Shown piece after piece: positions 3,094 through 5,053 of a stretch of 64,000 nt of DNA (position 1 is its first letter; the number at the start of each line of letters is the position of its first letter). Source of the stretch: Capsulimonadaceae bacterium (lineage in GTDB: Bacteria > Armatimonadota > Armatimonadia > Armatimonadales > Capsulimonadaceae); the NCBI GenBank assembly GCA_965215505.1, contig OZ244065.1, forward strand, positions 896,001 through 960,000, in the 5' to 3' direction. The position numbers and the translations under genes were made by a program. The notes beneath the pieces were generated by a model. It ran no database searches, had not been told where the DNA came from, and saw only the letters and a list, made by a program, of their open reading frames with translations.

Positions 3094-3165
3094 AGCCGAC
3101 ACGCGGATTCGAACCGCGGACCTGCTGTTTACGAAACAGCTGCTCTACCACTGAGCCATGTCGGC
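3094..3165 (-). tRNA. tRNA-Thr(CGU)
   Basis: cloverleaf GCCGACA...TGTCGGC T; anticodon arm GCTGT-TTCGTAA-ACAGC; GTTCGAATC T-loop; CCA not encoded. Confidence 0.95.
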
Positions 3166-4043: not shown

Positions 4044-4119
4044 TGGTGCCGCCTACCGGACTTGAACCAGTGACACCTCAATTTTCAGTCGAGTGCTCTA
4101 CCAACTGAGCTAAGGCGGC
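4044..4119 (-). tRNA. tRNA-Phe(GAA)
   Basis: 76-nt cloverleaf GCCGCCT...AGGCGGC ACCA; anticodon loop CTGAAAA. Confidence 0.95.
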
Positions 4120-4138
4120 ATTGCGATTAGACGGGCCT

Positions 4139-4167
4139 ATTATACCTGCGGCATCTTGAAAATGCAA
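4139..4167 (-). promoter_or_regulatory. sigma70 promoter of tRNA-Phe
   Basis: TTGCAT-N17-TATAAT on the minus strand; the -35 lies inside the inverted repeat GCATCTTG/CAAGATGC. Confidence 0.7.
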
Positions 4168-4195
4168 GATGCTGTCACACGGAAATGTGAGAAGA

Positions 4196-4226
4196 TGATG
4201 GGCGAGGCAGAATTTGAACCCGCGAC
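4196..4226 (-). pseudogene. 3' remnant of a canonical tRNA (probably Val)
   Basis: minus strand GTC-GCGGG-TTCAAAT-TCTGC-CTCGCCC-A-TCA = end of variable loop, T arm, acceptor 3' strand, A73 and degenerate CCA; no adjacent D or anticodon arm. Confidence 0.72.
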
Positions 4227-4246
4227 TATGATCGGAGAGCAACAAA

Positions 4247-4325
4247 TCGTCCCGACAAGACTCGAACTTGTGATGTGGTATGCCTCCGTGTAAAGGAGGT
4301 GGAATCGCCGCTATCCAACGGGACG
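4247..4325 (-). tRNA. atypical tRNA-Val(UAC)
   Basis: acceptor CGTCCCG/CGGGACG + A73; D arm GGA/TCC with A14, G18G19; anticodon arm CCTCC-TTTACAC-GGAGG; 11-nt variable region; T arm ACAAG-TTCGAGT-CTTGT. Confidence 0.85.
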
Positions 4326-4913
4326 GTAATCGTATTCTCTTCCGTTATAATACTGCCTGCGGGTTCGTCTCCCGTTCCCCTTGTTTCCTCCTTTGTAGGT
4401 TAATGTCTGAGCATCACAATTGCAACAGACAAGTCTCAGATTACACAGGGCGTTGTTGTCGGCGTGACCGTCAACATGATCAAGGACAAGAGGAATATCC
4501 TCGCCCATCCACTTGTCAAGGCTACAGATCGTACACTGCTTACCAGATGTTAAAGCCAGGTATTTCTTGCCACCATATTCGCTGGGCGCAACTCCTGTTG
4601 TCTCCATGCGAGCCAGATACTGGTCAGATTGGCACGCTCTGCTACAGAACTTGTCCCGGTTGGCTTTGAGCTTTCGACCACAGGAGCAGAAGGCAGACGG
4701 GATGCCATCCCGGCGGACGCCTTGATTATTAACTTTCGCCGCACAACTCGTTGAACAGAAAGTGTTGTTGCGCTTCGAGTAGTCCAAGAGTCGTTCGCAG
4801 TGGCGGCAGGTTCTCGGACTAGCTTGATGAATTGACAACCGAGTTTGATACTTCTGAGCGCAAGCCAGCTTTGCTTTCTCTACATCGATTCTTGCGGCCT
4901 CGGCTTTTGTCAT
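4311..4913 (-). CDS. HNH endonuclease with multiple CxxC/FCS zinc-binding motifs (homing endonuclease-like)
   Basis: CTIC...LVLDHVDGHADNNALCNLRLVCCNCD HNH signature; N-terminal CRHC, FCSTSC, FCSRAC; visibly more AT-rich than flanking genes. Confidence 0.88.
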   Translation of the reverse strand: MTKAEAARIDVEKAKLACAQKYQTRLSIHQASPRTCRHCERLLDYSKRNNTFCSTSCAAKVNNQGVRRDGIPSAFCSCGRKLKANRDKFCSRACQSDQYLARMETTGVAPSEYGGKKYLALTSGKQCTICSLDKWMGEDIPLVLDHVDGHADNNALCNLRLVCCNCDAQTLTYKGGNKGNGRRTRRQYYNGREYDYRPVG

Positions 4914-4944
4914 GTTCCCACGCCACTCGCTCTCTTAGTCGTGG

Positions 4945-4973
4945 AGTGTACCCCCAGACCGCTGATAAGTCAA
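4945..4973 (-). promoter_or_regulatory. sigma70 promoter driving the HNH/tRNA-Val unit
   Basis: TTGACT (4973-4968)-N17-TACACT (4950-4945). Confidence 0.75.
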
Positions 4974-5053
4974 GCGGGCCGTTCCCCTACGTTTGCGCCG
5001 GGAGACGTTCGGGTATTTTTGCGGCAGGACTGATACAGTCCGGGAGGGCATTT

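Follow-up and report, generated by a model that had tools for sequence, protein, structure and literature searches.

The 64,000-nucleotide stretch of bacterial DNA analysed here (the window; contig OZ244065.1, positions 896,001 to 960,000) contains, at window positions 4247-4325, an atypical tRNA-Val(UAC) gene of 79 nucleotides (nt) that overlaps an open reading frame (ORF) for a predicted HNH nuclease. We consider it probable that this tRNA is a working spare, carried in a 682-bp free-standing HNH homing endonuclease cassette that broke the native tRNA-Val(UAC) gene of its host. The key to the nature of the 79-nt tRNA is what flanks the cassette, namely the remnants of that native gene. The window's genome (G000) is the complete 6.18-Mb chromosome of a soil bacterium of the Armatimonadota, with a guanine plus cytosine (GC) content of 66.5%, and its nearest public records are metagenome-assembled genomes (MAGs) of Capsulimonadaceae/Armatimonadota. 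All features described below that lie between window positions 4044 and 4973 are on the minus strand.

A cassette within a broken tRNA-Val gene

In relatives of this bacterium, tRNA-Val(UAC) and tRNA-Phe(GAA) form a conserved tandem. The commonest old form of the tRNA-Val(UAC) gene, here called type A, is a canonical 72-nt tRNA; six genomes from three genera share it without a difference (100% identity), and a second family has it at 90% identity. At the corresponding site in the window, tRNA-Phe(GAA) is present as the downstream partner (4044-4119), outside the cassette and with its own promoter in 4120-4198, and a consensus scan places the sigma-70-like promoter of the ancestral tRNA-Val gene (TTGACT, a 17-nt spacer, and TACACT) at 4945-4973, upstream of the entire cassette. 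Relatives with an intact gene have this promoter in front of it, and it also lies ahead of the disrupted gene in the metagenome contig L050 and in the MAG G011.

Between the promoter and tRNA-Phe, the type A gene survives only as two pieces. The 5' remnant (4916-4932) comprises positions 1-12 and approximately 25-29 of type A, with an 11-nt internal deletion, and aligns with a complete 28-nt piece in L050. The 3' remnant (4199-4233; 35 nt) retains the 3' strand of the anticodon stem, the variable loop, the T arm, the 3' acceptor strand and A73. The BLAST-supported part of the 3' remnant (4199-4227; 29 nt) is 96.6% identical to type A positions 46-74 with an E value of 5e-9, and the genome-wide match of the remnant to type A is 96% (E 2.6e-6). 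Lying between the two remnants is the inserted cassette (4234-4915), 682 bp in length and 50.9% GC, whose boundaries were set by comparison with the intact gene of G012 (locus L004) and with L050. It consists, in order, of a 2-nt leader, the HNH endonuclease ORF of 200 amino acids (4311-4913), the cargo tRNA (4247-4325), and a 13-nt linker (4234-4246) that leads to the 3' remnant and differs between copies. The stop codon of the ORF is positioned 15 nt inside the tRNA. In place of the cassette, the ancestral gene would have had approximately 9 nt, corresponding to positions 30-38 and the anticodon loop.

The arrangement is seen more completely in L050, where the promoter is followed by type A positions 1-28 (28/28 identical, BLAST E 8e-11), an insert of approximately 682 nt with an intact HNH ORF, an identical 79-nt tRNA and a linker, the remainder of type A from position 38/39 (positions 38-74, 94.6% identical), and tRNA-Phe. 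Remnants flank the cassette likewise in G011 and G067. Because the pieces of the native gene are in order, because the anticodon loop is missing, and because neither ribozyme, recombinase nor repeats are present, the arrangement is best read as a 682-bp cassette that inserted into the native gene and destroyed it. The preliminary description of the window, which did not register the two remnants, had proposed a foreign origin for the tRNA, and this is borne out by the low GC content of the cassette (51%, relative to 66.5% for the genome, within an island of about 50% GC that surrounds the tRNA) and by the 51% identity of the cargo tRNA, type C, to the type A gene that it displaced, the differences extending over the whole length.

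Two familiar kinds of insertion into tRNA genes were considered and rejected. In the case of a group I intron, no match to Intron_gpI was found in 4150-5050 even at an E value of 10, nor was one found in the genome; moreover, because approximately 9 nt have been lost from the host gene, the anticodon among them, the exons could not be rejoined into a tRNA. In the case of an integrase island, the 682 bp hold an HNH ORF and a tRNA only, with no recombinase, and the flanking sequences are the 5' and 3' halves of a single gene, not repeats.

The 79-nt tRNA-Val(UAC)

The tRNA-Val gene at 4247-4325, annotated as tRNA-Val(tac) by ARAGORN, is one of three tRNA genes in the window. Against the Rfam model RF00005 it scores 47.2 bits, well above the gathering threshold of 29, with an E value of 1.3e-8 and a match to the full model (1-71 of 71). 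The same 47.2 bits were obtained in a genome-wide Infernal search, where this is the lowest score among the ordinary tRNAs of the genome. A whole-window Rfam scan at the gathering threshold omitted the gene and smaller or laxer searches reported it; the miss of a 47-bit tRNA is attributed to speed filters. The minimum free energy (MFE) fold is a cloverleaf of -25.4 kcal/mol (z -2.15), with 6 of 200 shuffled sequences being as stable.

The acceptor stem is a perfect 7-bp helix that begins with C1-G72 and is followed by the discriminator A73, and the D stem is formed by G10-C25, G11-C24 and A12-U23 together with a U13/U22 mismatch. The 5-bp anticodon stem closes the loop TTTACAC, with the anticodon TAC (UAC) at 4290-4292 as identified by ARAGORN, Rfam and the sequence, and the 5-bp T stem closes the loop TTCGAGT. 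No CCA is encoded, and A73 is followed by TTT. The variable region, CATACCACATC (4272-4282), is 11 nt in length, lacks any G, is unpaired in both the MFE and centroid structures, and is invariant in 5/5 copies of the gene. Thus, the atypical features listed in the preliminary description (an 11-nt stemless variable region, C1-G72, a U-U in the D stem, and no CCA) are all confirmed by ARAGORN, Rfam and the fold. Some of these features are not peculiar to this gene, as an encoded CCA is commonly absent from tRNA genes of the genome (for instance, tRNA-Thr at 3094-3165) and C1-G72 is shared with its tRNA-Pro genes. The 11-nt unpaired variable region, on the other hand, is unique among the tRNAs of the genome.

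Class I tRNAs possess a variable loop of 4-5 nt, and class II tRNAs possess a long variable arm with a base-paired stem. With 11 nt between the anticodon and T stems, the 79-nt tRNA lies outside class I, and with no G and no pairing of those 11 nt in the MFE or centroid structures it lies outside class II. The residue G46 normally forms a base triple with the 13-22 pair; here G46 is lacking and the 13-22 pair is U/U, so that the tRNA core must have a different architecture. The identity set for bacterial valyl-tRNA synthetase (ValRS) is the anticodon nucleotides A35-C36 and the discriminator A73, and here both the loop TTTACAC and A73 are present. The anticodon loop is also the same as that of types A, B, B' and D, the other allelic forms found at this locus.

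The 79-nt tRNA carries the sole UAC anticodon in the complete genome, as judged from 63 ARAGORN and 59 Infernal tRNA calls; the remaining valine tRNAs have the anticodons GAC and CAC. The codon GUA is used at 2.0 per 1000 codons in 2407 long ORFs with high GC at third codon positions (GC3). By standard wobble rules the decoding of GUA requires a UAC tRNA, and so a cell that uses GUA needs one. A full-length gene of type A, B or D was not found in G011, G022 or G067. A single RNA sequencing run (X19) covered tRNA-Phe only, as contigs, and has no bearing either way on the cassette. Three DNA runs (X4-X6) proved to come from strains that are nearly identical, and they contribute little.

The adjoining HNH endonuclease

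The ORF at 4311-4913 is predicted from its sequence to encode an HNH nuclease, in agreement with the suggestion in the preliminary description that a nuclease gene adjoins the tRNA. It matches two PHROG families of HNH endonucleases (3.5e-16 and 2.2e-15) and has, after two Cys-rich modules in its N-terminal part, a C-terminal HNH core of the form CxxC...DH...N...CxxC-D, with the catalytic His, the structural Asn and the pair of Zn-binding CxxC motifs in place. The catalytic motif is one held in common with the homing endonuclease I-HmuI. In an alignment of 20 relatives, C127, H146, C163, N165 and C166 are invariant, and C130 and N158 nearly so. In the AlphaFold2 model of the protein, residues 100-175 have a predicted local distance difference test (pLDDT) score above 90.

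The phage-like origin proposed in the preliminary description holds for the nuclease and not for the tRNA. In addition to the PHROG matches, a tblastn search with the HNH protein returned 142 phage records, annotated as HNH or homing endonucleases, and several of the phage relatives lie within tRNA arrays, as evidenced for Streptomyces phage Jollison, GAP32, Atu_ph07 and two contigs in IMG/VR. In Jollison, the HNH coding sequence overlaps the next tRNA by 15 nt, as it does in the window. The 79-nt tRNA, in contrast, has 0 matches in IMG/VR and 0 in 50,697 phage records.

Distribution, decay and selection

The 79-nt tRNA is identical in five lineages (G000, G011, G022, G067 and L050), and no copy that is less than 100% identical was found in 71 genomes of the order. 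Searches of public genome contigs with three patterns gave no match beyond the same three MAGs, and a single metagenome contig was matched. At the protein level, no confirmed close relative of the HNH endonuclease was found outside this group in 185,579 species genomes. An empty site is provided by G012, in which an intact type A gene lies between the same promoter and the same tRNA-Phe. The position of G012 was examined in a maximum-likelihood tree of a nearby ABC-F protein from 28 genomes (G007, G024, G062, G067 and others were left out, there being no clear orthologue among the loci fetched), where it falls in one clade (98/97) with the carriers G000, G011 and G022, the order within the clade not being resolved. 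The site is therefore empty in G012 and filled, with common junctions, in G000, G011, G022, L050 and G067, which is the pattern of presence and absence that characterizes a free-standing homing endonuclease gene. The last of these, G067, belongs to another genus and shares the cassette, its site and its 3' junction with the others.

In the life cycle of homing endonucleases, copies of the gene degenerate after fixation, and degenerating copies are found here. The HNH gene is intact in G000 and L050, with 82.7% amino-acid identity between the two proteins. In G011 an internal deletion has left the first 24 and the last ~12 codons, and in G067 only the last 41 codons are left. In the case of G022 the HNH gene is gone, such that the native promoter abuts a tRNA that is unchanged, its anticodon loop included.

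The two intact copies also provide a measure of selection. Over 181 codons, the HNH genes of G000 and L050 differ at 96/543 nt, corresponding by the Nei-Gojobori method to 0.077 nonsynonymous (dN) and 0.99 synonymous (dS) substitutions per site, the latter near saturation, and to a dN/dS of 0.079. The adjoining tRNAs differ at 0/79 positions, an outcome with a probability of ~5e-28 at the synonymous rate. Given this lack of change in the face of a dS of 0.99, the identity of the tRNA copies is a result of constraint and not of recent transfer. The selection for function proposed in the preliminary description is thus well supported, both by 0/79 differences in five lineages relative to 96/543 in the adjoining ORF and by the absence of any other UAC tRNA from the complete genome. 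Variation among copies is also seen in the linker and the remnants, and not in the tRNA. For the 11 variable-loop sites alone, the probability of no change is 0.45^11, or ~1.6e-4 for one pair, and the sequence of the variable loop is thus itself constrained.

Type C is one of five tRNA-Val(UAC) alleles, 51-77% identical to one another, that occupy a single syntenic site within one genus. By comparison of loci L004-L012 and L051-L064 (23 congeners) with window positions 4044-4973, type D was found in 12 genomes and types A, B, B' and C in three each. Each of the D, B and B' alleles is found in a single clade of the ABC-F tree, and type A occurs in more than one place. The distribution of the alleles suggests repeated wholesale replacement of the tRNA-Val(UAC) gene.

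Nuclease relatives and their association with tRNA genes

A sample of 401 Armatimonadota genomes yielded matches to the HNH protein in 38, and 30 of the matching loci were fetched and examined for an association with tRNA genes. A tRNA gene lies within 500 nt of the match in 21 of these loci. In five more (L022, L023, L024, L028 and L030), the ORF is situated within an intron of 670-790 nt that interrupts the anticodon loop of a tRNA-Leu or tRNA-Arg gene, as detected with ARAGORN -i; one of these, L023, matches Rfam Intron_gpI at 1667-1874 with a score of 51.3 bits, which reaches the threshold. In total, 26 of the 30 loci are in or beside tRNA genes, and no tRNA was found at the remaining four, one of which ends at a contig edge.

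Among these relatives the closest, with 42% identity, is found in G067 at L021 (G067:C16), positions 1498-2076. Here, the native promoter is followed by the HNH ORF, a divergent AT-rich tRNA-Thr(UGU), and tRNA-Tyr, and the syntenic site in G000 is occupied by a canonical tRNA-Thr(UGU). This locus is a second case of a nuclease accompanied by a substitute tRNA, although one with no visible remnants.

Over-long tRNAs are also present in a phage setting. In the IMG/VR contigs L068 and L069, a 13-tRNA phage array with an HNH relative includes, at 823-907, an 85-nt tRNA-Val(UAC) with a variable region of ~14 nt, beside a normal 75-nt tRNA-Val(UAC), and the tRNA-Trp and tRNA-Asp of the array are over-long as well. 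Long variable regions in class I tRNAs may be a recurring feature of such phage arrays.

A model for invasion and the alternatives to it

The sequence of events that we propose begins with an HNH enzyme that would recognise the intact type A gene of cassette-free genomes and cut it near the anticodon stem-loop. Repair of the break from a cassette-bearing copy would then copy both the nuclease and the spare tRNA into it. A carrier would be immune to further cleavage, as its target is split and its spare is only ~51% identical to type A. The cassette would be transcribed from the old tRNA promoter, and the spare tRNA-Val(UAC) would supply GUA decoding in place of the killed gene. After fixation the nuclease gene would be free to decay, as in G011, G067 and G022, and the spare, by then indispensable, would be frozen by selection. 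In this scheme we infer the cleavage of type A DNA, homing, valylation, GUA decoding, and a variable region that is tolerated and not required.

A number of observations weigh against this reading. No Foldseek match of the model to the PDB was found at an E value of 0.001 or better, the top PDB entries being HNH DNA nucleases that match weakly (E at or above 0.12), and in Pfam the ORF has no match at an E value below 0.01, with HNH_3 reached at 0.04 only. In addition, the last metal-binding His of the motif (CxxC-H) is Asp167 in G000 and L050 only, among the 20 sequences aligned; the residue is His in 16 of the 20 and Arg in two. Asp or Asn at this position is found in active relatives such as I-HmuI, however, and so Asp167 does not rule out activity. 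The MAGs G011, G022 and G067 are 91-95% complete, so that the lack of a further Val(UAC) gene in them is not proof of its absence. All five copies of the tRNA are identical, leaving no variation from which covariation could be read. Within the genus, the ABC-F tree and a dS of ~1 fit a single old insertion that was vertically inherited, with only G067 calling for a second event, so that ongoing homing is no more than a possibility. Lastly, the nuclease is intact and under strong purifying selection long after fixation, unlike the expectation for a simple selfish life cycle.

An alternative is that the cassette is a one-off recombination scar, in which a nuclease gene and a tRNA-Val from a phage or another mobile tRNA array were captured once by illegitimate recombination in the native tRNA-Val gene and inherited vertically, with the HNH protein taking no part and not targeting the gene. 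In keeping with this, the Val(UAC) allele types follow the ABC-F tree with the three type C genomes in one clade, the two intact copies are old by their dS of 0.99, and the ORF lacks close relatives outside the group in the 185,579 species genomes. A scar is difficult to reconcile, however, with the same cassette, site and 3' junction in the other genus represented by G067, with the occurrence of 26/30 relatives in or beside tRNA genes, including anticodon-loop introns, with an insertion that removes exactly the anticodon loop in which the introns of those relatives sit, or with strong purifying selection on the nuclease gene, and we regard it as unlikely. Slightly less likely still is the strict mechanism of the preliminary description, in which six extra bases in the variable loop make the tRNA gene, or the tRNA, resistant to the adjoining nuclease. 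The invariance of the 11 nt in five lineages (~1.6e-4 for one pair) speaks for such a role, as does the 85-nt tRNA-Val(UAC) with its ~14-nt variable region that lies beside a normal one in the IMG/VR array with an HNH relative. Type C is only 51% identical to type A throughout, however, meaning that immunity needs no special loop; moreover, the insertion site, and with it the probable point of cleavage, falls within the anticodon stem-loop instead of the variable loop, and other spare tRNAs that lie beside nuclease relatives have normal loops.

Two further alternatives concern the RNA itself, and both seem to us very improbable, to much the same degree. The tRNA could be a pseudo-tRNA or processing signal with no part in translation, its fold serving only to direct RNase P/Z to the 3' end of the nuclease mRNA. 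The placement of the ORF stop codon inside the tRNA, the lowest score among the ordinary tRNAs (47.2 bits), and the atypical variable region, U13/U22 and C1-G72 would suit such a role, but it would leave a complete genome that uses ~2 GUA per 1000 codons without its sole UAC anticodon, when the native gene is destroyed in every carrier, and it does not explain why the tRNA is unchanged in G022, where the nuclease is gone and the tRNA lies directly behind the native promoter. Alternatively, the HNH protein might cleave the type A tRNA at the RNA level, with the cassette tRNA as a resistant antidote and the two forming an addictive pair. Tight linkage of a nuclease to a resistant-looking substitute, and persistence of the nuclease gene under purifying selection after fixation, are both consistent with a toxin and antidote. 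Yet the best structural and sequence relatives of the protein are DNA nucleases or homing endonucleases, no type A gene is left in carriers to make the target, and an insertion in the DNA of the target gene is the footprint of a DNA-cutting homing enzyme.

Extending the cassette interpretation beyond this locus, it is about an even chance that it represents a natural 'cut the gene, bring a spare' drive on bacterial chromosomes, in which HNH enzymes travelling with their own recoded tRNA destroy essential single-copy tRNA genes and leave the host dependent on a foreign, deviant tRNA. Repeated rounds of such invasion would explain both the five alleles and the presence of at least three HNH families at the tRNA-Val locus.

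Other nucleases and tRNAs at the locus and in the genome

At least three HNH families crowd the tRNA-Val/tRNA-Phe locus. A second HNH family, unrelated-looking and with the motif CVDC...DHRD...CxxCHRRRT, lies between type D tRNA-Val and tRNA-Phe in G003, G004, G014 and G021 (L054 1241-1600, L055 173-829, L056 919-1581 and L057 218-700), and is apparently present in G067 as well (L013, downstream of the Val remnant). In L050, a third HNH-like ORF follows tRNA-Phe (1885-2361). Partial copies of type D tRNA-Val are found beside tRNA-Phe at G003:C180:1946-1995, G018:C8:15700-15745 and G008:C1:882130-882171. In some congeners, as seen from the Val-Phe spacing in G020 and G001, the full tRNA-Val gene is 2.8-5 kb away or on another contig. 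Larger insertions at the same tRNA are suggested by these arrangements.

Elsewhere in G000, two additional HNH ORFs adjoin tRNA genes (G000:C1:3434289-3434901 and 1169914-1170582), both belonging to the same broad family and having helix-turn-helix-like N-termini; one of the two is positioned between a promoter and tRNA-Gln(CUG), and the other just downstream of tRNA-Gln(UUG). The arrangement of promoter, HNH ORF and tRNA-Gln(CUG) recurs in most of the congeners' fetched best-match loci. The genome also has a tight cluster of six tRNAs (Arg, Asn, Met, Gly, Phe and Lys) at G000:C1:2219562-2221409 that resembles a mobile array, and a tRNA-Ile with the anticodon UAU at G000:C1:5948263-5948339; tRNA-Leu(UAA) was not found in G000 by ARAGORN. 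Three tRNA-like Infernal matches of 109-123 nt (38.8-44.5 bits), with inserts of 28-49 nt in the anticodon arm, lie at G000:C1:1685236-1685344, 1685447-1685566 and 4778535-4778657. Two of the three are in tandem, ARAGORN reports them only as intron-containing Ser/Arg tRNAs, and none is a Val(UAC).

Significance and comparison with known systems

If the cassette interpretation is correct, a selfish nuclease can enter an RNA gene that is essential and free of introns and leave its host alive, by means of a complete substitute for the gene and not by a self-splicing intron. The spare, fixed in a cellular chromosome, would be the only GUA decoder of the cell, and bacterial translation would apparently live on a valine tRNA of neither structural class. 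Such a tRNA would be relevant to recognition by ValRS, to the modifying enzymes that recognise position 46 of tRNAs, and to orthogonal tRNA design. The cassette would also account in concrete terms for the complete exchange of tRNA genes between close relatives, which is otherwise puzzling, and would be a natural counterpart of engineered cleave-and-rescue drives. For annotation, it is relevant that tRNAs of this kind score low, and that the inactive gene halves beside them can readily be mistaken for scars of integration. In a literature search that took in neither most subscription journals nor supplements, no paper was found on a nuclease cassette that lies within a tRNA gene of a bacterial chromosome and brings a spare tRNA with the same anticodon.

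Homing endonuclease genes that stand free among tRNA genes are already known, and the system described here is a variant that is fixed in a cellular chromosome. The Seg and Mob enzymes of phage T4 are associated with 'intronless homing'. One of these, SegB, is a homing endonuclease of the GIY-YIG type, encoded by a free-standing gene within the tRNA gene cluster of T4, that cuts the tRNA gene DNA of genomes lacking SegB, recognises a motif of the T-psi-C stem-loop, and is inherited together with neighbouring tRNA genes while recipient markers are lost (PMC2330249). The likeness lies in a free-standing nuclease gene among tRNA genes. Unlike SegB, which is a GIY-YIG enzyme of co-infecting phages, the nuclease here is an HNH enzyme on a bacterial chromosome, and the spare is the cell's only tRNA of its kind. 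Moreover, SegB is not described as lying inside a destroyed tRNA gene with a same-anticodon spare, as the cassette here does.

Group I introns with homing endonuclease genes are found in the anticodon loops of bacterial tRNAs, for instance tRNA-Leu(UAA) (PMC3984707). The present cassette likewise occupies the anticodon loop, and relatives of its HNH protein are encoded in such introns in Armatimonadota. By comparison with the introns, however, the cassette has no ribozyme and the host loop is deleted, with function being restored by a second, complete tRNA gene and not by splicing. An HNH homing endonuclease gene is also conserved next to, and co-regulated with, the mobile tRNA L-arrays of cyanobacteria and other bacteria, and has been proposed to promote their transfer (PMC8421152). 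Both systems place an HNH gene beside mobile tRNA genes, but L-arrays are long accessory additions to a full native set, whereas here a single tRNA replaces the native gene, the halves of which are left as scars.

Islands and prophages that carry an integrase target tRNA genes and leave a displaced 3' piece of the tRNA. In this respect they resemble the cassette, which also has a tRNA gene as its target and a displaced tRNA 3' piece beside it. They differ in that no integrase is present in the 682 bp, that the flanks are the two halves of one gene with no duplicated attachment (att) core, and that the working tRNA is of a different sequence (51% identity) and not a reconstituted copy of the original.

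Cleave-and-Rescue (ClvR) couples a nuclease directed against an essential gene tightly to a recoded copy of the gene that the nuclease cannot cut (PMC6442612). The logic of the cassette is the same. ClvR is an engineered system of Cas9 and guide RNAs that is placed at a distant locus in diploid animals and kills non-carriers, whereas the cassette is natural, lies within its own target, and would be spread through gene conversion. A further parallel exists in fungal mitochondria, where mobile ORF elements, such as those of Allomyces atp6, carry a replacement for the end of the gene that they invade. As in those elements, a homing-type ORF inserts here and brings with it a foreign substitute for what it displaces; the Allomyces elements, however, provide an in-frame substitute for the 3' end of a protein gene and nothing more, whereas the cassette in the tRNA-Val(UAC) gene brings a complete and independent RNA gene.

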